64,000 nt of DNA, from assembly GCA_022844135.1 (NCBI GenBank), contig JALHMG010000005.1:91691-155690 (forward strand), written 5' to 3'. Under the pieces are notes generated by a model that was given only the letters and a program-made list of their open reading frames with translations, did no database searches and was not told where the DNA came from. A program made the position numbers and the translations under genes. The stretch comes from Lysobacterales bacterium (GTDB lineage: Bacteria; Pseudomonadota; Gammaproteobacteria; Xanthomonadales; SZUA-5). Below are positions 451 to 44,596 of the stretch, one piece after another (positions within the stretch are counted from its first letter, which is position 1; the number at the start of each line of letters is the position of its first letter).

Positions 451-1833
451 CTACATCAACGGCGGCAAGCGCACCTCAAACGACGCCCCGCCCAACGACT
501 CCGATCGCGACACGATCATTTCGCCGTCGTAGCTGGCGACGATATCGCCGATGATGGACAGGCCGATGCCGTGCCCCTGCACGCGCTCGTCGCCGCGGAC
601 GCCGCGTTTCAGCACCTCGGAGGTTTGATCGTCCGGGATGCCGGGGCCATCGTCTTCGACGCGCAGAAACAAACCCGGCCGGCGCGCTTTGGGATTCCTG
701 ATCGGTTGTGCGGTGAGCAGCACGCGCGATTTGCACCACTTGAAGGCGTTGTCCATCAGGTTGCCCACCAGCTCCATGAGATCGCCCTTGTCGCCATGGA
801 ACATGGCTTTGGGGTCGATCTCGAACTCGGCAAGCGCTTGTTTGTTCGCGTACACCCGTTCCAAAGTGAGCGCGATTTCTTCGGCGTGCGGTTGCACGGG
901 CAGCGGCGCGGCATACGTCTGGTGGCCAGACTTCGCGGCACGCGCGAGCTGGTAGGCGACGATCTCATCCATCTTGGTGACTTGCTCGGTGCCGGCGTGT
1001 TTCAGCGCGGCAGCGTCGTCCTCGTTGTCGAACAAGCCGCGCATCACGGCGAGCGGGGTCTTCAAGCTATGCGCGAGATCGCCCAGTGTGTTGCGATAGC
1101 GGCGCAAGTGTTCGCGCTCGCTTTTGATGAAATCGTTCAGACCTTGCGTGAGCGTCGCCAATTCGACTGGATAGTCGCCGGTGAGTGCCTCAGATTCCCC
1201 GCGCTGCACGCTGGCGAGATCGCGCGCCACCGCCCTGAAGGGTTTCAAGCTCCAGATCAGCAGCAGCGCCTGGAAGGCCAGCAGCAACAGCCCCAAGCCG
1301 CCCAACACCACCCACATGGTTTCGCGGAACGCAGTGATCTGGCGCTTCACGCCGCTCTGGTTTTCGCCGACGTTGATGGTAACGCGCACGTCTTTGCCGC
1401 CCGCCGAGCGCGCCTCGAAGAGCACGCCCATGCTGAGCATATAAACGCCGCCGACGTTGGTTTGGATCGGCCCTTTGAAGACGATCTCGCCGGGTTTCAG
1501 CGCGTCTTCGAATGGCAACTCGCGCTCGGCGGCGCTCGGCGATTCCCAGCGGAAGTTTTCCGCGTACAGCGAGGCGTACAAACCGGAGCCCGGTCGATCG
1601 AGCCGCGGCTCGGGCACAAGTTCCGGAATCAGCACTTCGCCGCGCACCGAGATATCGGTGCGCGCGAGAAACGAATACAGCACGCTTTGCATGCGCTCGC
1701 GGAGCACCGAAAACGCCCAGCCTTCGAAGGCGCGTTCCAGCGCGTAACCGGTGAGCCCGATGAACGCCGCCAGCACCAGGCTGGCGACGAACATGCTGCG
1801 CGCGGCAAGCGAAAACGGATGCCGCGCGGCCAC
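451..1833 (-). CDS. phoQ: two-component sensor histidine kinase, PhoQ-like
   Basis: N-terminal TM helix, periplasmic segment and second TM. H-box HSLKTPLAV and G-box GHGIGLSII are present. It lies 6 nt downstream of phoP. Confidence 0.8.
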   Translation of the reverse strand: MAARHPFSLAARSMFVASLVLAAFIGLTGYALERAFEGWAFSVLRERMQSVLYSFLARTDISVRGEVLIPELVPEPRLDRPGSGLYASLYAENFRWESPSAAERELPFEDALKPGEIVFKGPIQTNVGGVYMLSMGVLFEARSAGGKDVRVTINVGENQSGVKRQITAFRETMWVVLGGLGLLLLAFQALLLIWSLKPFRAVARDLASVQRGESEALTGDYPVELATLTQGLNDFIKSEREHLRRYRNTLGDLAHSLKTPLAVMRGLFDNEDDAAALKHAGTEQVTKMDEIVAYQLARAAKSGHQTYAAPLPVQPHAEEIALTLERVYANKQALAEFEIDPKAMFHGDKGDLMELVGNLMDNAFKWCKSRVLLTAQPIRNPKARRPGLFLRVEDDGPGIPDDQTSEVLKRGVRGDERVQGHGIGLSIIGDIVASYDGEMIVSRSESLGGASFEVRLPPLM

Positions 1834-1839
1834 GGTGCG

Positions 1840-2520
1840 TTATGCAGTGCGTGGGATCGAGAACCGATAGCCGCGACCGCGCACGGTTTCGATCGGTTTC
1901 AGCGCGCCGTCGGGATCGAGCTTCTTGCGCAGCCGACCGATGAAGACTTCGATCACATTGCTGTCGCGATCGAAATCCTGCTCGTAGATGTGCTCGGTCA
2001 AATCGCTCTTCGACACCAGCTCGCCAGCGTGCAGGATCAGGTACTCGAGCACCTTGTATTCATAGCTCGTCAGATCCACCGAAACATCGTTGACGGTGAC
2101 CGACTGCGCAGTGGTATCGAGTTTGACCGGCCCGCATTCGAGCAGCGGCTTGCTCCACCCGGCGCTGCGGCGCACCAGCGCGTTCATGCGCGCCAGCAGC
2201 TCCTCGATATGAAAGGGCTTGACCAGGTAATCGTCGGCGCCGCACTTCAGGCCTTCGACCTTGTCTTCCCAACTGCCGCGCGCGGTGAGGATCAGGATCG
2301 GATAGCGCCGACCGTACTCGCGCAATTTCTTCACCACCTCCAGCCCCGGCAACTTCGGCAGGCCGAGATCGACGATGGCAACATCGAAGGGCACTTCCTT
2401 GCCCATGTATACGGCTTCGTCGCCATCGCAGGCGGTGTCGACCGCGAAGCCTTCGCGCTGCAGGCGCGCAGCCAGGGTCTCGCGCAACGGGGCTTCGTCT
2501 TCGACCAGCAGAACTCGCAT
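1840..2520 (-). CDS. phoP: OmpR-family response regulator PhoP
   Basis: REC domain (VAIVDLGLP, ILILTAR, DYLVKPF) plus winged-helix C-terminus (VRGRGYRF). Near-colinear with Xanthomonas PhoP as I remember it. Confidence 0.9.
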   Translation of the reverse strand: MRVLLVEDEAPLRETLAARLQREGFAVDTACDGDEAVYMGKEVPFDVAIVDLGLPKLPGLEVVKKLREYGRRYPILILTARGSWEDKVEGLKCGADDYLVKPFHIEELLARMNALVRRSAGWSKPLLECGPVKLDTTAQSVTVNDVSVDLTSYEYKVLEYLILHAGELVSKSDLTEHIYEQDFDRDSNVIEVFIGRLRKKLDPDGALKPIETVRGRGYRFSIPRTA

Positions 2521-2530
2521 CGCTCACTCC

Positions 2531-2749
2531 TTACGCCGGGATTTGGAATATACGAACGCGACCATCAGGCATCAGCACCTTGATGCGATATACCACCGTA
2601 CCACGGGTACGGATGGTATCGGCGGACAACACCGTGCCCTTGGTGTCCTTTTCGACTTGCTCGATGGCCTCTTTCAAGGTCAACGCCCACGCAGGATCTG
2701 CGAGGAGGAGAGAAGCCGCGAATACTGCCAGGGACAAAGTACGGGTCAT
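2531..2749 (-). CDS. small secreted PepSY-domain protein
   Basis: Signal peptide MTRTLSLAVFAASLLLA followed by a PepSY-like core (LKEAIEQVEKDTKGTVLSAD...YRIKVLMPDGRV). Start set at the internal ATG 2749. The ORF upstream of that runs into the repeat region. Confidence 0.6.
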   Translation of the reverse strand: MTRTLSLAVFAASLLLADPAWALTLKEAIEQVEKDTKGTVLSADTIRTRGTVVYRIKVLMPDGRVRIFQIPA

Positions 2750-2843
2750 CGAAACCTTTATCGCATCCAATGCCTCGATCATAGTCGCGGCGCGGCGCGC
2801 ATGTTCGCAAGCTGCGACGCAGCGAAAGCTGAACGGGATGCGA

Positions 2844-2878
2844 GGGGCGGGGTACGGGGCACGGGGCACGGGGCGTGG
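2844..2878. repeat. degenerate GGGGCAC heptamer array (left arm of an inverted pair)
   Basis: Five GGGG tracts at 2844, 2849, 2856, 2863 and 2870: gaGGGGcGGGGtacGGGGcacGGGGcacGGGGcgtgg. Confidence 0.85.
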
Positions 2879-2963
2879 AGCCGATGCCGAGTGTCGAATG
2901 AGGAGTTTTTGGCCGGGCTCTGCCAGAAATCAAGTATCGTTCCAGGCCGGATATTCACCCGTT

Positions 2964-2999
2964 CCCCGTGCCCCGCGCCCCTTCATGCCCCTGATCCCC
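2964..2999. repeat. degenerate GTGCCCC heptamer array (right arm, inverted relative to 2844-2878)
   Basis: ccccgtgccccgcgcccc is the reverse complement of ggggcgcggggcacgggg, which has 1 mismatch to the left arm. Further CCCC tracts run into the first codons of the GNAT gene. Confidence 0.8.
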
Positions 3000-3497
3000 G
3001 CCACTCCCGCCGATGCACCTGCCCTGTCGATTCTGATGGAGCAGACTTTTCGCGCCGCGTATGGCGATGCTGCAAGCGAGGACAAACTAAAAATTCACGT
3101 TGCTCGCAGCTATGACCCGCAGGCGATTGCGCAGCGCCTGCGCTCGGGCGAGATCGGCATTTGGTATGCGCCCGGTGCTACGGATGCCGCGAGCGACGCG
3201 ATTGGCTACGTGCAATTGGGGTTCAATGTCTCGCCGCCGGCCGCATCGGGGCCGGCCATCGAAGTGCAGCGCTGCTATCTGCAGCCTGAAGCGATTGGCT
3301 CTGGCGCCGGCGCGTGGTTGATTGACATGGCCAAGCAGCAGGCGCAGGCGCGTGGCGTGGGTTTGTTTCTGTCGGTTTATCAGCTCGCGCCGCGGGCCAT
3401 TCGGTTCTACGAGAAACACGGCCTGCGCCGCGCGGCGGCTGTGAAGTACTACATCGCTGATGTGGAATTCGACGACTGGTTGATGGTTTGGCCATAG
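2985..3497 (+). CDS. GNAT-family N-acetyltransferase
   Basis: 170 aa. Acetyl-CoA pocket-like QPEAIGSGAGAWLI and C-terminal FYEKHGL motif. Start at ATG 2985 (MPLIPATP), in frame with the listed ORF. Confidence 0.7.
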   Translation: MPLIPATPADAPALSILMEQTFRAAYGDAASEDKLKIHVARSYDPQAIAQRLRSGEIGIWYAPGATDAASDAIGYVQLGFNVSPPAASGPAIEVQRCYLQPEAIGSGAGAWLIDMAKQQAQARGVGLFLSVYQLAPRAIRFYEKHGLRRAAAVKYYIADVEFDDWLMVWP

Positions 3498-4738
3498 GCC
3501 GCGCCAGCCAAAACGGCGGCGATCAACGTCAAGGTTCGCGGCACAGCGCCGCGCTCACGCTCGACGACGCCCAACGCGGCTGCAGACAGACGCTCAGCCA
3601 AGGCCGGGTCGCTCAGCACGCGGATCAACTGGGTGCCAAGCTGTGCGCCGTTTTGCACGCGGATCAAGGCTTGGTCGCGCAGCATGGTTTCGCAGACTTC
3701 GGCGAAGTTGAAGGTGTGCGGACCGGTCAGCACTGGTTTGCCGAGCGCAGCGGGCTCCAGAACGTTGTGACCGCCGATCGCATCCAGGCTGCCGCCGACG
3801 AAGGCCGCGTCGCTGCAGGCGAAAAACTTGAGCAGCTCACCCATGGTATCGACCACGAAACACTGCGAATCGCCGCCTGCAAGCGTGTCCTCGCTTCGGG
3901 AGGCGGTGCGAAAGCCGAACGATCGGCACAGACCGATCGCTGCTCGAAAGCGCTCCGGATGCCGCGGCACCAAGATCAGCAGCGCGTCGGGAAAGCGCCC
4001 GAGCACACGCGCATGCGCTTGCAATACGGCGGCCTCCTCGCCTTCGTGCGTGCTCGCCGCGATCCAAACGGGCCGCAGTGCACCCCAGTGCTCGCGAAAT
4101 CCGGCGGCCTCGGCGTCAAGGCCAGTCGGCACCGCCATATCGAATTTGATGTTGCCGACCACCTGTAACCTGTCCTCGGTCACGCCCAGGCGTCGAAAGC
4201 GTTCGGCATCGCCGTGCGACTGCGCGGCGACCAGATCCGCGCACTGCACCGCCTCGCGCATCAGCGCGATCGCCGGACCGTAACCGCGCAAACTACGTTC
4301 CGACAATCGCGCGTTGGCAATGAAGATCGGAATGCCAGAGCTCTTGCACGCGAAATACAGGTTCGGCCAGATCTCGGTTTCCATGACCACCGCAATGCGC
4401 GGTCTGACGCGCGCCATGAAGCGCTTGATCGCGCTCGGCAGGTCGTAAGGCAGGTACACATGGAACACCCGCGATCCCAGGCGCTTGACGACGCGCTCCG
4501 AACCGGTGGGCGTGATCGTCGTAACGACCATGGTGTCATTCGGATGCGCGGCCAACAACGCCTCGATGAGCGGCATAGCGGCATTGAACTCGCCCACCGA
4601 CACTGCGTGCACCCATATCGAGGAGCGAATATGCGCGTCGAACCAGCCGAAGCGTTCCAGCCAGCGCTTGAAGTAGCCGCGATTGCGCAGGCCGCGGAAC
4701 GCCAGGCGATACAAGATCACCGGCATCGCCAGATACAT
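3449..4738 (-). CDS. waaA: 3-deoxy-D-manno-octulosonic acid (Kdo) transferase
   Basis: Colinear with E. coli WaaA (HAVSVGE, TTITPTGSERV, YLPYDLP, ETEIWPN, ANARLSERS, STHEGEE, LVPRHPERF, GGHNVLEPAA). Start taken at ATG 4738. The alignment suggests a few more N-terminal residues and a possible non-ATG start near 4765. The remainder of the 793-aa ORF is antisense to lpxL. Confidence 0.85.
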   Translation of the reverse strand: MYLAMPVILYRLAFRGLRNRGYFKRWLERFGWFDAHIRSSIWVHAVSVGEFNAAMPLIEALLAAHPNDTMVVTTITPTGSERVVKRLGSRVFHVYLPYDLPSAIKRFMARVRPRIAVVMETEIWPNLYFACKSSGIPIFIANARLSERSLRGYGPAIALMREAVQCADLVAAQSHGDAERFRRLGVTEDRLQVVGNIKFDMAVPTGLDAEAAGFREHWGALRPVWIAASTHEGEEAAVLQAHARVLGRFPDALLILVPRHPERFRAAIGLCRSFGFRTASRSEDTLAGGDSQCFVVDTMGELLKFFACSDAAFVGGSLDAIGGHNVLEPAALGKPVLTGPHTFNFAEVCETMLRDQALIRVQNGAQLGTQLIRVLSDPALAERLSAAALGVVERERGAVPRTLTLIAAVLAGAAYGQTINQSSNSTSAM

Positions 4739-7381: not shown

Positions 7382-7792
7382 CTATACGGTCTGTACGATC
7401 AGTTCGACGCCGGGCAATCGCGACGCTTGCACATCGAAGGTCGCGAAGCGGCTGCGTCCCAAATGCGCGGCCCTCGCGCTCAGCAGGCAGTCGGCGAAAT
7501 CGGCAGTTGGATGCTGGTTCCACACATAAAGCGCTTGCTCGACGCTGGGCGGATGCTCGATCACTACGTCAGCGCTCTCCAGCAGCGCGGCGATCGCCGC
7601 TGCGATACTGGCCTTGTCGAGTTTGTAACGACTGCGCAGCACCCATTCGGTTTCGAGCAACACACCGAGGACAATCAGCACCGGTTGATCATCGGCTTGA
7701 GCCTGATCGATCAGGCGCCGCGCCGCTTCGTACTGCGGCTCGTCGTCGCGGACCAGCAATCGAACCAAGACGTTGGTGTCAATCGCGATCAT
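7382..7792 (-). CDS. vapC: PIN-domain ribonuclease toxin (VapC family)
   Basis: MIAIDTNVLV start with the acidic residues expected of PIN (D5, E in LETEWV, D in FADCL). 136 aa. Confidence 0.8.
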   Translation of the reverse strand: MIAIDTNVLVRLLVRDDEPQYEAARRLIDQAQADDQPVLIVLGVLLETEWVLRSRYKLDKASIAAAIAALLESADVVIEHPPSVEQALYVWNQHPTADFADCLLSARAAHLGRSRFATFDVQASRLPGVELIVQTV

Positions 7793-7829
7793 TGCTCAGC
7801 CCTCAGTCGGCGAAGCGCCAGACGACCCG

Positions 7830-8090
7830 CTAAGTTCGAACTCGTCGCTTCGATGCCTTGGTCGCTGGAGTTCGAAACGGATTCATCTCCTCAAGCGCCA
7901 CGCTCGGCTGACCAGGTCGCGTCAGCGAACCGGCAAGATCAGCCAGCCGGCGCGTCTTGGGGCGCATCACAACAGTGCCATCGCTGAGCAGCGTGAACAC
8001 CATCTTGTCGCCAGACTTCATCCCGAGCTGCTCGCGAATATCGCGCGGTACAGTGATCTGACCTTTAGAAGTCAGGGTTGTCGGCTCCAC
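7830..8090 (-). CDS. AbrB/SpoVT/MazE-fold antitoxin
   Basis: TLTSKGQITVPRDIREQLGMKSGDKMVF is a typical swapped-hairpin AbrB motif. Start placed at GTG 8090. An ATG at 8171 would add 27 unrelated residues and would overlap the palindrome. Confidence 0.65.
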   Translation of the reverse strand: MEPTTLTSKGQITVPRDIREQLGMKSGDKMVFTLLSDGTVVMRPKTRRLADLAGSLTRPGQPSVALEEMNPFRTPATKASKRRVRT

Positions 8091-8105
8091 GGGCCAGTCC
8101 CAAGT

Positions 8106-8128
8106 ATTACGAATGGCCAAATCGTAAT
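8106..8128. promoter_or_regulatory. palindrome upstream of the antitoxin gene, candidate autoregulatory operator
   Basis: attacga-N9-tcgtaat is a perfect 7-bp inverted repeat 16 nt upstream of the GTG start on the minus strand. Confidence 0.3.
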
Positions 8129-8183
8129 GCGGGGCGCAAGCTCGGTCAAGCACATCCCAACAGCCGATCAAGCCGCCTGAGCC

Positions 8184-10229: not shown

Positions 10230-12620
10230 ATGTTCGATATCGCAATTGTCGGCTCGGGCCCCGGCGGCATCAGTGCGGCAGCGCGGGCGGCTGAGTTGAA
10301 GGTGTCGCACATATTGCTGGAGGGCGCGCCGCACCTGTCCAACACCATCTATCGCTATCAGAAAGGCAAGCACGTGATGGCCGAGCCTGAGGCTCTGCCG
10401 TTACGCTCGCCGCTCAAGTTCCAGGCCGGTTCGCGCGAATCGATTCTGGAGAGTTGGGACCAGGATGTCGCCAAGCTCGGCGTCAACGTGCGTCACGGCG
10501 CAGAAGTCACGGCGATTAAGAAAACCGACGCCGGCTTTGATCTGTCGATCGGCCGCAGCGAGAAAATCCAGGCGAAGGCCGTGGTCCTCGGCATCGGCCT
10601 GCAGGGCAATATCCGCAAGCTCGGCGTGCCCGGCGAAGACGCGCCGTTTGTGCAATACACGCTCGACGATCCCGACGAATACGAAGGCGAGACGATCATT
10701 GTCGTCGGCGCTGGCGATGCGGCGATCGAGAACGCGGTGTCTCTGGCAAAACAAAACCAGGTGGTCGTCGTCAATCGCCGCGAGGAGTTCGCGCGCGCCA
10801 AGGAAGGCAATCTGCGCGCCATCCAGAAGGCCATCGAAGATGGCGTGATCGAGTGCTACTTTGGCTCGGCGCCTGAGCGCATCGACAAGCTCACGGTAGG
10901 CAAGAAGCCGGGCCGCATGATCTTGAACACGCCCAAGGGGCGCGCGCAGGTGTTGTGCGATCGCATCATCGCGCGACTTGGCGCCAATCCACCGCGAACC
11001 TTCGTCGAGGCTTGCGGCGTCAAGTTTCCGAACGACGATCCAGCGGCCGTGCCGGCGATCAGCGAGAAGTACGAGAGCAACGTGCCGGGTTTGTACATTG
11101 TCGGCGCGCTCGGCGGCTATCCGCTGATCAAGCAGGCGATGAACCAAGGTTATGAAGTCGTCGAGTACATCCTGGGTCGCAGCGTTGAGCCGGCGGATGA
11201 ACCGCTGCTGCGTGCGAAATTCGAATCGATGCCGGGCTTCAAGAGTGTCGGCGCCACATTGAAGAAGATTCAAGAGGCCGTGCCGCTGCTGGCCACGATT
11301 ACGCCGCTGCAATTGCGCGAGTTCATGATCGACTCTGCCTTGCGCGCGCCCAAATCTGGCGAAGTGATTTTCAAACGCAACGATTACACCAACAGTTTTT
11401 ATTGCCTCGTCGATGGCCATGTCGAAGTGTTGATGGACGACGCCGGCGATAAGCGCATTGTGCTCAACCCAGGCGAGTTTTTTGGCGAAATGAGCTTGAT
11501 TTCCGGGCGCCGCCGTACTGCCACGGTGGTCGCTGGAAAGGGCTGCGTGCTGATCGAAACGCCGCGCCGATCGATGAAGAAACTGATCAACTCGGTCGAG
11601 GCGGTGAAGAAGATGATCGACCAGGTCTTCGTCGAACGCGCGATCCGCGCGCGCTTTGGCGAGGAGGCCACGGCGGTGCAGATTCGCGATGTGGTCAAAG
11701 GCGCAACGTTGCAGCGATTCAAGGCCGGCGAGGTGTTGTTCCGCGAGGGCGATGATGGCGATTGCCTGCATCTGGTGCGCGTCGGCTCGCTGACGATCTC
11801 AAGGCAGATCGCCGGACGCGATGTGGTGCTGAGTTATGTGCCGGCCGGCAATTACGTCGGCGAAATGGCGCTGCTGGGCGGCGGCAAACGCTCGGCGACC
11901 GCGAAAGCTGCGATCGCTACCGAGACCATTCGCGTCGAGCGCGAAGCCTTCCGCAAGCTGCTGGCGCAGAACCCGATGCTGCGAATGAAATTGGCTAACG
12001 AGGTCAAACAGCGCACTGCGGAAAACATCACCACGCAAGCGGGCGCCTCCAGCGGCGATGTGATTTCGTTTTTGATCGGCCAGGGCGTGGGCGAAGCCAC
12101 GGACGTGCTGCTGATCGACGAATCGCTGTGCGTACGCTGCGACAACTGCGAGAAGGCCTGTGCCGAGACCCATGGCGGCACCTCGCGCCTGGATCGCGAA
12201 GCCGGTCCCACCTTCGCCAATGTGCATGTGCCGACGAGCTGCCGCCATTGCGAGCATCCGCATTGCATGAAGGATTGCCCACCCGACGCCATCCATCGGG
12301 CGCCGAATGGCGAGGTGTTCATTGCCGACAACTGCATCGGCTGCGGCAATTGCGAGCGCAACTGTCCGTACGGCGTGATCCACATGGCGGCCAAGCCAAA
12401 GAAGAAACCGGGCCTGCTGCAATGGCTGCTATTCGGCGCTGGCCCCGGCCCAGGCGAGTCGCCGTACGACCCGGAAAGCCACGAGAAAAAAGCCGTCAAG
12501 TGCGATATGTGCAAGGACATCAAAGGCGGCGCCGCGTGCGTACGCGCCTGTCCGACGGGCGCGGCGATCCGAATCAGTCCCGAGCAATTACCGGAGTATG
12601 CGTATGCGCGGGCGCCGTGA
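10230..12620 (+). CDS. fusion protein: TrxR-like flavoprotein (no redox CxxC) + 2 cNMP-binding domains + 4x[4Fe-4S] ferredoxin module
   Basis: IAIVGSGPGG (FAD) and IIVVGAGDAAIE (NAD(P)H). FGEMSLISGRRRTATV and VGEMALLGGGKRSATA (cNMP-binding). CVRCDNCEKAC, CRHCEHPHCMKDCP, CIGCGNCERNCP and CDMC...CVRACP (Fe-S). Confidence 0.85.
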   Translation: MFDIAIVGSGPGGISAAARAAELKVSHILLEGAPHLSNTIYRYQKGKHVMAEPEALPLRSPLKFQAGSRESILESWDQDVAKLGVNVRHGAEVTAIKKTDAGFDLSIGRSEKIQAKAVVLGIGLQGNIRKLGVPGEDAPFVQYTLDDPDEYEGETIIVVGAGDAAIENAVSLAKQNQVVVVNRREEFARAKEGNLRAIQKAIEDGVIECYFGSAPERIDKLTVGKKPGRMILNTPKGRAQVLCDRIIARLGANPPRTFVEACGVKFPNDDPAAVPAISEKYESNVPGLYIVGALGGYPLIKQAMNQGYEVVEYILGRSVEPADEPLLRAKFESMPGFKSVGATLKKIQEAVPLLATITPLQLREFMIDSALRAPKSGEVIFKRNDYTNSFYCLVDGHVEVLMDDAGDKRIVLNPGEFFGEMSLISGRRRTATVVAGKGCVLIETPRRSMKKLINSVEAVKKMIDQVFVERAIRARFGEEATAVQIRDVVKGATLQRFKAGEVLFREGDDGDCLHLVRVGSLTISRQIAGRDVVLSYVPAGNYVGEMALLGGGKRSATAKAAIATETIRVEREAFRKLLAQNPMLRMKLANEVKQRTAENITTQAGASSGDVISFLIGQGVGEATDVLLIDESLCVRCDNCEKACAETHGGTSRLDREAGPTFANVHVPTSCRHCEHPHCMKDCPPDAIHRAPNGEVFIADNCIGCGNCERNCPYGVIHMAAKPKKKPGLLQWLLFGAGPGPGESPYDPESHEKKAVKCDMCKDIKGGAACVRACPTGAAIRISPEQLPEYAYARAP

Positions 12621-12750
12621 GGGTGTGAGCTGGAGCGAGGCACGGGGCATGGACAGCAACAGCGTGCATGCCTTCTGGCAGAGTGTGTCCAGTCCCGCGC
12701 CGCGCGCTTGCACTCCCGTGTCGCGCTTCCGGGGTCGCTCCATTGTCTCG

Positions 12751-12852
12751 CGTCCCGTGCCCCACGCCCCGCAGTTGCTGTCCCGTGCCACTTGCCTCAC
12801 GCTCCGTTCCTGCTGTCGCGTGCCCCGCGCCCCGTGCCCCGTGCCCCGCTCC
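12751..12852. repeat. GTGCCCC-type heptamer arrays in the spacer between 10230-12620 and 12914-13807
   Basis: cgtcccgtgccccacgccccgcag (12751-12774), gtcccgtgccac (12780-12791) and gtgccccgcgccccgtgccccgtgccccgct (12820-12850). An opposing gaggcacggggcatgg lies at 12638-12653. Confidence 0.8.
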
Positions 12853-12913
12853 TGTTGTTGTTCCCCCAATCCAGTCGGTCCAGGCATCGCACTCACTCAA
12901 ATGCAGCCGCACC

Positions 12914-23407: not shown

Positions 23408-23436
23408 GCGTGTTGCGCCAGGCAAGAGTGCGGTAT

Positions 23437-23457
23437 GGGGCACGGAGCACGGGAGCA
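23437..23457. repeat. degenerate GGGGCAC heptamers (left arm)
   Basis: ggggcac ggagcac gggagca. Confidence 0.7.
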
Positions 23458-23527
23458 GCGATTCTCATGCTTGCTCGCGGCTTGCACGTCACGAGGTCGA
23501 GTTCCCGAGATTCCTGAATGGTCTTTT

Positions 23528-23941
23528 TCACGCGCCGTGTGCCCCGTGCGCGCCCCGCGTCTGCACTCCAAATCGCACCGGCACCCACCAGAACGATAGC
23601 GCCACCAACGCCGCGAACGCGGTGTAGACAACGGCAAGAACACTCAGCGGCACGTCGACATAAATCAGCGCGCGCAGCCAGTAGGCGATGAACGATTCGC
23701 CGGGGCCTGAAGCGCCGCGCAGATCGTTCTCCCAGATCGTCAGCGGGCACAGTTCCCCGAGCCAGGTCTGCGCGACGATGAAACCGATCAGACCCAGATG
23801 CAAAAATCGAAATCCAGGACGGCGCACCCAGGACCAGCCGCGCCATCCGCCGATCAGCGTCAGCGGCAGAGAAAAAACCACGAAAGCCACAATCAGCGCA
23901 TGCGCAAACAGTATGGTGTCGGCGAGCGCAGTCGCGGTCAT
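23528..23941 (-). CDS. DUF2784-family membrane protein
   Basis: Four helices and the conserved ELCPLT(I)WE motif. The ATG overlaps the pepP stop (ATGA). The last 8-10 codons lie in the heptamer repeat, so the true C-terminus is uncertain. Confidence 0.65.
   Translation of the reverse strand: MTATALADTILFAHALIVAFVVFSLPLTLIGGWRGWSWVRRPGFRFLHLGLIGFIVAQTWLGELCPLTIWENDLRGASGPGESFIAYWLRALIYVDVPLSVLAVVYTAFAALVALSFWWVPVRFGVQTRGAHGAHGA
23538..23559. repeat. degenerate GTGCCCC heptamers (right arm, inverted)
   Basis: tgtgccccgtgcgcgccccgcg. On the minus strand it encodes the GAHGAHGA tail of the DUF2784 ORF. Confidence 0.7.
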
Positions 23942-30717: not shown

Positions 30718-30750
30718 GGTGAGGCTGGCCTTTTGCGTGGGGCGGGAATA

Positions 30751-30779
30751 GTCGATGGTCAAAGGTCAATGGTCAATGG
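30751..30779. repeat. GGTCAAT heptamer array, left arm of a perfect 19-bp inverted repeat
   Basis: gtcgatGGTCAAAGGTCAATGGTCAATgg. Positions 30751-30769 are the exact reverse complement of 30961-30979. Confidence 0.9.
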
Positions 30780-30960
30780 GATGTTGAAGACAGCTTCCCA
30801 TTTTGATGGACGCGATGGCCGGTCTGGTCGGTCAATAGTCAATCGGATAACAGAGGCGGCTCTTCCCGGCATCGGGGAGATGTCCTGGTTATTGGTCCGC
30901 TGGAAAAACGCGCAGCCGAAGGTGTGGCAAGACACGGACGATGCAATGGTCTGCTTCCGG

Positions 30961-30979
30961 TTGACCTTTGACCATCGAC
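30961..30979. repeat. right arm of the 19-bp inverted repeat (TTGACC units)
   Basis: ttgacctttgaccatcgac is the reverse complement of gtcgatggtcaaaggtcaa. Confidence 0.9.
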
Positions 30980-30991
30980 TCGCCGGGTCCT

Positions 30992-44473: not shown

Positions 44474-44582
44474 AACCCCTCCCATACGATGACGAACGTT
44501 CCCCAACGCCAGAATGTTAGCGCGCAGTGAATCTAAATGGTATGAAGATAGGTCAATAGAGCTTGCAGCGGGAGGCTGGAGC

Positions 44583-44596
44583 GGGGCGCGGGGCAC
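44583..44596. repeat. two GGGGC(G/A)C heptamers (single arm)
   Basis: ggggcgc ggggcac. A lone ggtcaatag lies 30 nt upstream at 44551. Confidence 0.6.

Follow-up and report, generated by a model that had tools for sequence, protein, structure and literature searches.

Convergent arrays of a G-rich heptanucleotide repeat at gene borders in a Rhodanobacteraceae-like member of the Lysobacterales

Analysis of 64,000 nucleotides of contig JALHMG010000005.1 (Lysobacterales bacterium, GCA_022844135.1, positions 91,691 to 155,690 of the forward strand; hereafter the window, 64 kb) revealed an intergenic element between a PepSY/two-component operon and a divergent GNAT acetyltransferase gene (locus a, also copy a), which is very probably a convergent pair of G-rich heptanucleotide simple sequence repeats (SSRs) of the type (GGGGCRC)n, a member of the class to which (GGGAATC)n of Xanthomonas belongs. 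With the same high confidence, this identity is held together with an origin of the element in place. While the repeat class itself was already known, new here are the unit, the lineage, the layout shared by multiple units, the rule of a leading purine-rich arm, the emergence of a module in a coupled gene junction, and the wholesale replacement of a module between strains. By its sequence, the host is a Rhodanobacteraceae-like member of the Lysobacterales; homologues at 68–70% identity came from metagenome-assembled genomes (MAGs) named Rhodanobacteraceae, Xanthomonadales, or Lysobacterales, and one Lysobacterales MAG carried a neighbour gene of 72% identity. Locus a is organized as follows, the genes being named after the gene-family assignment of the window open reading frames (ORFs):

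2844–2878, plus strand: left arm, G-rich heptamer array GGGGC GGGGTAC GGGGCAC GGGGCAC GGGGCGT GGAGC, G4Hunter peak +2.44
2879–2957, no strand: spacer ("core"), locus-specific, no copy elsewhere
2958–2981, minus strand: right arm, a GGGGCRC-type repeat, the plus strand reading CCCGTT CCCCGTG CCCCGCG CCCC, G4Hunter −2.12
2988–2999, minus strand: two extra CCCC tracts inside GNAT codons 2–5 (ATG at 2985)
2985–3497, plus strand: GNAT acetyltransferase gene
2750–2843, minus strand: upstream region of the PepSY operon, ..GATCATAGTCGCGGCG..GCATGTTCGCAAG..GCGAAAGCTGAACG.GATGCG, conserved in a second species of the genus (L007) and stopping exactly at the start of the G arm
2531–2749, minus strand: PepSY-domain gene, which opens the divergent two-component operon
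1840–2520, minus strand: response regulator gene, following the PepSY gene in the operon
451–1833, minus strand: sensor kinase gene of the operon

The five in-phase GGGG tracts reported in a preliminary description of this DNA were found at exactly these positions, starting at 2844, 2849, 2856, 2863, and 2870 of the plus strand (2844–2873, 7-nt phase), and Tandem Repeats Finder (TRF) assigned them a period of 7, with 3.9 copies and a 95% match for the G arm at 2848–2874 and 3.4 copies as the second period-7 figure for the pair; a decayed 7-nt phase runs on to about 2897. The inverted partner reported there, ccccgtgccccgcgcccc at 2964–2981, comprises three C4 tracts and ends 3 nt before the GNAT ATG, and the CCCC tracts said to reach into the first GNAT codons were seen as well, as were the flanking PepSY/two-component operon and GNAT gene. 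The left arm lies 94 nt from the PepSY start and abuts the conserved PepSY promoter region. The best inverted pair joins 2849–2872 to 2958–2981 (24 nt, 88% complementary, 85 nt apart), and from either side, the G-rich strand enters the spacer in the 5'→3' direction. In regard to structure, the suggested hairpin potential was upheld by predicted folds, in which the arms pair on both strands (−81.7 and −75.5 kcal/mol, z = −3.7), and the suggested formal potential for a G-quadruplex (G4) and an i-motif agreed with the G4Hunter prediction given above; the canonical G4N1-7 motif is predicted on both arms if the tracts at 2988–2999 are counted.

The spacer at 2879–2957 presumably holds the GNAT promoter, and no sigma-70 consensus or other canonical promoter was found in the locus a region; a sigma-54-like reading of TGGCCGGGCTCTGCC, made by eye only, was dropped because its spacing is off by one. 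No terminator-like site was detected in 2500–3300, the loop of the paired arms measuring 85 nt, with no T-run, instead of the 3–8 nt loop and U-tract of intrinsic (Rho-independent) terminators. A search against Rfam 15 at gathering score returned only tRNAs in the window, so that a known RNA family was ruled out for locus a at this threshold; at E ≤ 1, the region 2700–3050 gave only generic matches to long-hairpin microRNA precursors of 18–27 bits, compared to gathering scores of 80–168.

The preliminary description could name no matching repeat family, which has to be corrected, since G-rich heptameric SSRs of this class exist in Xanthomonas (PMC4692102). Rehm et al. (2015) described (GGGAATC)n at 183–186 sites in Xanthomonas campestris and X. 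axonopodis, of which 89–93% were intergenic, with a mode of four units and a mean distance of 28 nt to the 5'-neighbouring ORF (PMC4692102). There, the G strand is either sense and at most 50 nt past a stop codon or antisense and at most 50 nt before a start, two convergent sites occur in 70–75 cases, and the two species differ in repeat length but agree in the single or inverted type (PMC4692102). The repeats form G4 and i-motif in vitro, G4-capable repeats coincide with a transcript start or stop more frequently than controls do, and only 7–8% of the repeats lie between divergent genes, where they are under-represented (PMC4692102). They are set within the excess of heptanucleotide SSRs noted by Mrazek, and among gamma-proteobacteria the authors reported them only in Xanthomonas (PMC4692102).

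The element of the window shares the descriptive traits among these. Its unit has 7 nt with a run of at least three Gs and occurs in at least two copies (TRF period 7), the repeats are dispersed and mainly intergenic (four loci in 64 kb), the G strand lies near the 5'-neighbouring ORF (right arm antisense, 3 nt from the GNAT ATG), two convergent sites on opposite strands are close together, and the number of units varies while position and type are kept (three vs. four units at locus a, an eight-unit indel, and a decayed pair in the second species, contig L253). It lies outside the narrow GGGAATC/GGGANTN family of Xanthomonas, as its unit is GGGGCRC, and no GGGANTN tandem or GGGAATC array was found in the window.

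Related copies announced in the preliminary description were recovered at 12637–12849, 23435–23559, and 44583–44596, all intergenic, and one further module with another unit was detected:

12621–12913, plus strand: copy b, the whole intergenic region forming a repeat module from a cyclic nucleotide monophosphate (cNMP)-binding/FAD/4Fe-4S oxidoreductase gene to a gene for a 297-aa protein; short G arm at 12637–12650, partly decayed C-rich heptamer region at about 12744–12866, C4 arrays at 12753–12770 and 12820–12849
23435–23559, minus strand: copy c, arms at 23435–23459 and 23531–23559 with a 71-nt spacer, between DUF2784 and Na+/H+ exchanger genes (both minus)
44574–44596, plus strand: copy d, one short array without a partner, GGAGC GGGGCGC GGGGCAC (array core 44583–44596), between divergent genes for a TonB-dependent receptor and a methyl-accepting chemotaxis protein
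30750–30980, no strand: GGTCAAW module, left arm AGTCGAT GGTCAAA GGTCAAT GGTCAAT (30750–30782) and right arm TTGACCT TTGACCA TCGACT (30961–30980)

All four GGGGCRC loci of this 64-kb sample are intergenic or overlap last or first codons only; the G arm lies 16 nt past the stop codon in copy b and overlaps the stop in copy c. On the sense strand, the G-rich arm of copy c (23528–23560) encodes the C-terminal tail of the DUF2784 protein (..TRGAHGAHGA*), whereas the homologous region in L253 (2080–2113) gives ..HMGDGAG*. The GGTCAAW module, whose unit is not of the G4 type, comprises an inverted repeat of 20 nt without mismatch, its arms 191 nt apart, and extra GGTCAAT AGTCAAT units at 30830–30843, and is located between minus-strand cNMP-binding/rhodanese and PpnN-type nucleosidase genes. 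Predicted folds gave z = −3.9 for copy b and −4.35 for this module.

That the motif occurs more often than expected held within the window. The pattern GGGGCRCGGGG with at most one mismatch matched 17 times compared to 6.75 ± 2.6 expected matches, and none of 100 shuffles reached 17; arrays with at least three G4 or C4 tracts numbered three in the window vs. 0.06 in simulated sequence. Within the 64 kb, a G4Hunter |score| of at least 2 was obtained only for the arms of locus a and for 12822–12849, and a self-identity of at least 0.66 at lag 7 (W = 42) only for 2823–2897 and 12804–12855, while no other lag reached 0.70. Terminator-like sites were barely above chance across the window (25 vs. 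18–19.5).

For comparison with relatives, we used a sister strain (L001–L006, identical sequence from six metagenome samples; GNAT 97% identical, response-regulator gene 95.6% identical at the nucleotide level) and a second species in the genus of the window (L007, GCA_022844165.1; response regulator 99.6% identical at the amino acid and 86% at the nucleotide level). The sister strain carries the module at locus a with four C-tracts vs. three in the window; the spacer is about 91% identical, its right-hand 40 nt (2913–2953) being invariant. Only two alleles of locus a were seen, that of the window and that of the six identical metagenome samples. L007 has a 124-bp intergenic region without any array at this position, and the more distant relatives L128 and L129 also lack the module. 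The first seven residues of GNAT differ as well, reading MPLIPAT with the module vs. MTTLLQAV in a relative without it. Elsewhere in L007 (3857–4027), a prolyl-oligopeptidase-type gene is preceded by a tandemly duplicated segment of 85 bp (2.0 copies, 98% match), which is unrelated to the heptamer arrays.

Turnover was extreme at copy b. Where relatives have a downstream protein of 80% identity, only 2 nt separate the two genes (TGAcgATG, L255 9999–10000), so that the whole spacer of copy b represents an insertion into an operon junction. Within the genus of the window, three forms were found, namely 293 nt in the window, 401 nt in L254 (9600–10000), and 161 nt in the sister strain (L001 19628–19788). 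While the L254 form is homologous to that of the window and includes a 42-nt block of six heptamers (5.9 copies, 95% match), the form of the sister strain consists of unrelated sequence with GGGGCAG/GGGGAGC and CCCCCTG units; all three have a G-rich arm a few bases past the stop codon and a C-rich array toward the next start. In contig L255, an AT-rich pair of (GGAAAAT)n followed by (TTTTTCC)n was observed at 10895–11042 between the gene for the 297-aa protein and a multihaem cytochrome gene, a junction of about 10 nt in the window and L254.

Further changes were detected. Copy c in L253 keeps its position and its layout of G arm and C arm, with both arms drifted and a spacer that no longer aligns. 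The metagenome contigs L129 and L130 (Joint Genome Institute) share an otherwise identical 450-bp spacer that differs by a 56-bp gap, i.e., eight heptamers, inside (CCCCGTG)n, and the length changes at locus a (C arm of three vs. four units) are multiples of 7 inside the arms. On this comparison, arrays grow, shrink, and decay in place via slipped-strand events involving whole 7-nt units and sometimes higher-order blocks, and not by transposition. Judging from the DUF2784 tail and the first seven GNAT residues, the repeats can also remodel ORF ends. Two contigs of a Rhodanobacteraceae MAG (L026 1–33 and L059 4819–4843) terminate inside (GGGGCAC)n arrays, which suggests that the repeats break short-read assemblies.

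An alternative origin, in which the heptamers are the terminal inverted repeats of a non-autonomous mobile element similar to MITEs (miniature inverted-repeat transposable elements) or to paired repetitive extragenic palindromes (REP, REPIN), is largely refuted and in our opinion very improbable. Such an element would fit the inverted termini, which lie about 140 bp from each other, the dispersal of the copies, the empty orthologous site in L007, the perfect 20-nt inverted repeat of the GGTCAAW module, and a G/C array pair flanking a 620-bp insert with a small gene in L008 (see below). However, the spacers (15–620 nt) are unrelated to each other, and blastn-short searches of every spacer against the window and 260 further loci found each to be unique. 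Aligning the copies, which the preliminary description had proposed as a way to a consensus and termini, gave matches in the heptamer arrays only when the four copies were compared locally on both strands. Its proposed test for MITE-like target-site duplications revealed none at the borders of locus a, and comparison of the filled site (window) with the empty site (L007) showed differences in two separate places, not a single clean insertion. Moreover, the arms are direct repeats without an internal dyad, not palindromic REP units, and they change length in multiples of 7. No transposase was detected among 18 window ORFs scanned against Pfam (genes beside the modules and several others), and a plasmid collection contained no match to the element, a search with the response-regulator protein giving only matches below 60% identity. 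Rehm et al. saw no association with mobile elements either (PMC4692102).

An 11-mer that the preliminary description took as a link between the cores of copies a and b is located at 2918–2928, not 2909–2919, and at 12673–12683. Since 23 of 300 shuffles (8%) also gave an 11-mer shared among the four intergenic regions, it is not significant, and it is absent from copy b of the sister strain; it was therefore rejected as a core signature. The "core" is ordinary locus-specific intergenic DNA together with decayed units. Of the dispersed family that had been proposed, recurrence rather than a local accident stands, whereas a discrete element with conserved core and termini does not.

Scans of public genomes and metagenomes, which used the G-array pattern alone, yielded 240 loci, the matches listed being mostly from unrelated high-GC taxa. 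Among these, (GGGGCAC)n was widespread, including Micromonospora, Streptomyces, and Paraburkholderia, and the G-array preceded the C-array in 27 cases vs. three in reverse order (12:2 and 15:1 in the two scans). Four of the seven loci listed from the genome scan with a G-then-C pair belong to the Lysobacterales (L008, L088, L108, and L115). A generic search of Lysobacterales-like loci for complementary period-7 pairs revealed the purine-rich arm first in 20 of 20 pairs, corresponding to 14 independent modules with at least five different units. In loci of the Lysobacterales, a stop codon is followed within 0–16 nt by the G-array, then by a spacer of 15–620 nt and by the C-array before the next start; one 9.3-kb contig carries four modules of this kind. 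The arms may be inexact complements, with GGGGCAC opposite CCCCCTG, CCCCGAG, or CCCCAAG, and further units occur in the paired layout, namely GGTCAAW (window), GGAAAAT/TTTTTCC (L255), and CGGACGG (L103). At 4070–4195 of L255, GTCAAAC/GTGAAAC stands opposite CGTTTCA, resembling the module at 30750–30980 of the window. Thus, several unrelated units obey the same purine-first, stop-codon-adjacent geometry, which is newly added here. The distance to ORFs in the mixed scan set, based on crude ORF calls, showed a weak trend only (31% vs. 23% within 30 nt of a stop) and was not relied on.

Two further observations concern the pairing. In a Lysobacterales MAG (L008 1754–2483), a G-array/C-array pair brackets a 620-bp insert with a small ORF, the only case enclosing a gene; by eye, the ORF product resembles a four-helix-bundle ("23S rRNA intervening sequence") protein. 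In Micromonospora (L009, L053, and L063), uninterrupted (GGGGCAC)n arrays, the longest with at least 18 units, have no complementary partner. Therefore, the unit is not specific to the Lysobacterales, though the pairing seems to be.

As to function, we tentatively propose a structural role of the arrays at transcript boundaries, which we consider to have somewhat less than an even chance of being correct. A transcript entering the spacer from either side would copy the purine- or G-rich arm before the complementary pyrimidine-rich arm, so that the RNA could close into a long GC-rich stem (24 bp at locus a) or a G-quadruplex at the gene border. A role of a cruciform or of duplex DNA would be indifferent to arm order, yet the order matters, which implicates the transcribed strand or the RNA. 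The structure might then act as a 3'-end block, a U-tract-independent terminator, an insulator, or a target of RNase III, and the geometry would indeed fit REP-type 3'-end protection or a U-tract-free terminator or insulator. A hybrid of pyrimidine RNA with purine DNA is the weakest hybrid type, and the second arm would give one. No gene reads into the module at locus a. There, the module would mainly separate the two-component promoter from GNAT, and GNAT would receive a C-rich leader without a Shine-Dalgarno sequence, whose length shifts by 7 nt between strains.

Several observations speak against such a boundary role. The predicted fold of copy c is no better than that of shuffled sequences (z = −0.6), and the substitutions that distinguish the G arm of the sister strain from that of the window are several, none of them compensatory. 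L007 does without the module at locus a, with no visible compensating change, and the extreme turnover of copy b makes weak constraint likely. The genes flanking locus a diverge, so that no upstream gene reads in, a context that is rare in Xanthomonas, and its 85-nt loop and missing U-tract do not make a canonical terminator. Finally, Rehm et al. identified no function or regulatory role for the Xanthomonas repeats (PMC4692102). Identity, origin in place, and transcript-boundary mechanism, taken together as the best explanation, are put forward at about even chances.

Among other explanations, polymerase slippage biased toward 7-nt units may generate the arrays as a by-product that is neutral or mildly selfish and that only non-coding DNA tolerates, the complementary arms surviving since a self-folding spacer least disturbs the neighbouring genes. 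We rate this possibility as less likely than not. It would account for the hypervariable and lineage-specific occurrence, with absence at locus a in L007, L128, and L129, three versions of copy b in close relatives, and non-compensatory arm changes; neighbouring genes are functionally unrelated, and a slippage-size hypothesis is quoted for Xanthomonas, where no function was found (PMC4692102). On the other hand, something strand-specific is required to explain the strict purine-first order (14 of 14 modules, and 27 vs. 3 among the matches listed) and the close apposition to stop codons, and the Xanthomonas repeats favour four units and sit in unusually stable neighbourhoods (PMC4692102). Another idea is that of a dial for GNAT at the level of DNA or leader, the C-rich array at the ATG tuning transcription or translation in 7-nt steps as in phase-variable SSRs. 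Only 3 nt separate the array from the ATG, its length in the two strains differs by one unit, and both arms have high predicted G4Hunter scores (−2.12 and +2.44); expression of hmw1A in Haemophilus influenzae depends on heptamer number (PMC12721329), and G4 effects in Escherichia coli, as reviewed, vary with position and strand. Such arrays, however, adjoin unrelated housekeeping genes, mostly past stop codons, only two alleles were seen with six metagenome samples being identical, and phase variation was considered unlikely for such repeats by Rehm et al. (PMC4692102), so that we regard a GNAT dial as improbable. Hardly any probability is given to arrays of binding sites for a protein recognizing 7 nt, such as a regulator, a nucleoid protein, or a cold-shock-type single-strand binder bracketing promoters. 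Regular spacing, inverted arms around a promoter-containing spacer, and an arm abutting the conserved two-component promoter would suit such a protein, and CspB-type proteins are reported to bind one heptamer each. A single sequence-specific protein nevertheless does not fit, because at least five unrelated units (GGGGCAC, GGTCAAW, GGAAAAT, CGGACGG, and GTGAAAC) share the architecture; in addition, a 7-nt phase sets successive sites on different helix faces, and the units drift freely between strains.

Within its divergent promoter region, locus a alone is of minor note. It is valuable as a clean extra data point on the reason for which heptanucleotide repeats accumulate at the gene borders of large high-GC genomes, and it shows that the Xanthomonas phenomenon is not bound to one unit or genus. 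Modules can arise inside an operon junction, and strains whose nucleotide identity is about 96% (response-regulator gene) can carry fully remodelled versions. In practical terms, arrays would break short-read assemblies and can extend or remodel ORF ends. A far-reaching generalization, which we offer as speculation with only a small chance of being right, is that intergenic borders of Lysobacterales are built by a common process, in which complementary heptamer arrays of arbitrary unit and purine-first order arise de novo even between translationally coupled genes and serve as bidirectional, U-tract-independent transcript boundaries. In the boundary step, the hairpin would close before the weak pyrimidine-RNA/purine-DNA hybrid has left the polymerase, or RNase III would cut the stem. 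If true, this would give the lineage as a whole an alternative to canonical terminators and REP elements. Apart from the repeats, the window harbours at 7382–8171, between citrate synthase and phosphoenolpyruvate carboxykinase genes, a pair of a PIN-domain toxin and a PrlF-MazE-type antitoxin, inferred from orthologous gene calls in L001.

With respect to known systems, dispersed short heptamer arrays that are mostly intergenic and near starts have been described as TAACTGA repeats in Beggiatoaceae and cyanobacteria (PMC4679880) and as (GGGACCG)4 in Geobacter metallireducens (PMC2700814), and there, too, relatives without arrays have shorter spacers. These differ from the arrays of the window in unit and phylum and are nearly always direct (169 direct sets, one indirect repeat). 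With REP, bacterial interspersed mosaic elements (BIMEs), REPINs, and MITEs, the modules share short length, dispersed extragenic positions often just past stop codons, and hairpin formation, and a role in 3'-end protection is plausibly comparable. REP elements, however, are conserved imperfect palindromes moved by the RAYT transposase, whereas the arms described here are tandem direct repeats without an internal dyad, and MITEs have a conserved body and target-site duplications, whereas the spacers here are unrelated and no duplication was found.

Heptanucleotide long SSRs (LSSR 5-11) were assigned by Mrazek (2007) to large high-GC genomes, as summarised in PMC4679880 and PMC4692102. As far as these summaries go, such repeats and the short tandemly repeated repetitive (STRR) sequences GGGGA(C/T)T of Calothrix and Nostoc resemble the present arrays in their tandem, intergenic 7-nt units, over-represented in Xanthomonas, Burkholderia, actinobacteria, and cyanobacteria; in the same summaries they appear as single arrays, unlike the purine-first pairs found here mainly in Lysobacterales loci. 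In H. influenzae, the (ATCTTTC)n repeat of hmw1A forms a 5'-untranslated-region hairpin that RNase III cleaves, and a change in repeat number requires transcription as well as the hairpin (PMC12721329). As predicted for locus a, heptamer repeats and a complementary arm make up the two sides of a long RNA hairpin, and the hmw1A unit number changes between cells (PMC12721329). For hairpins of heptamer SSRs, it is the one mechanism tested by experiment, and it concerns one dedicated AT-rich virulence locus, in which the right arm is a non-repeat G-rich sequence and the pyrimidine-rich arm comes first.

Compared to (GGGAATC)n of Xanthomonas, the arrays of the window have a GGGGCRC unit with four Gs and a GC-rich loop in a Rhodanobacteraceae-like host, copy a is located between divergent genes, and the neighbourhood is unstable, copy b being replaced between close relatives. 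The two share a G-tract heptamer in about four units, an intergenic position hugging ORFs, convergent pairs, changes in unit number, and the order Lysobacterales/Xanthomonadales.

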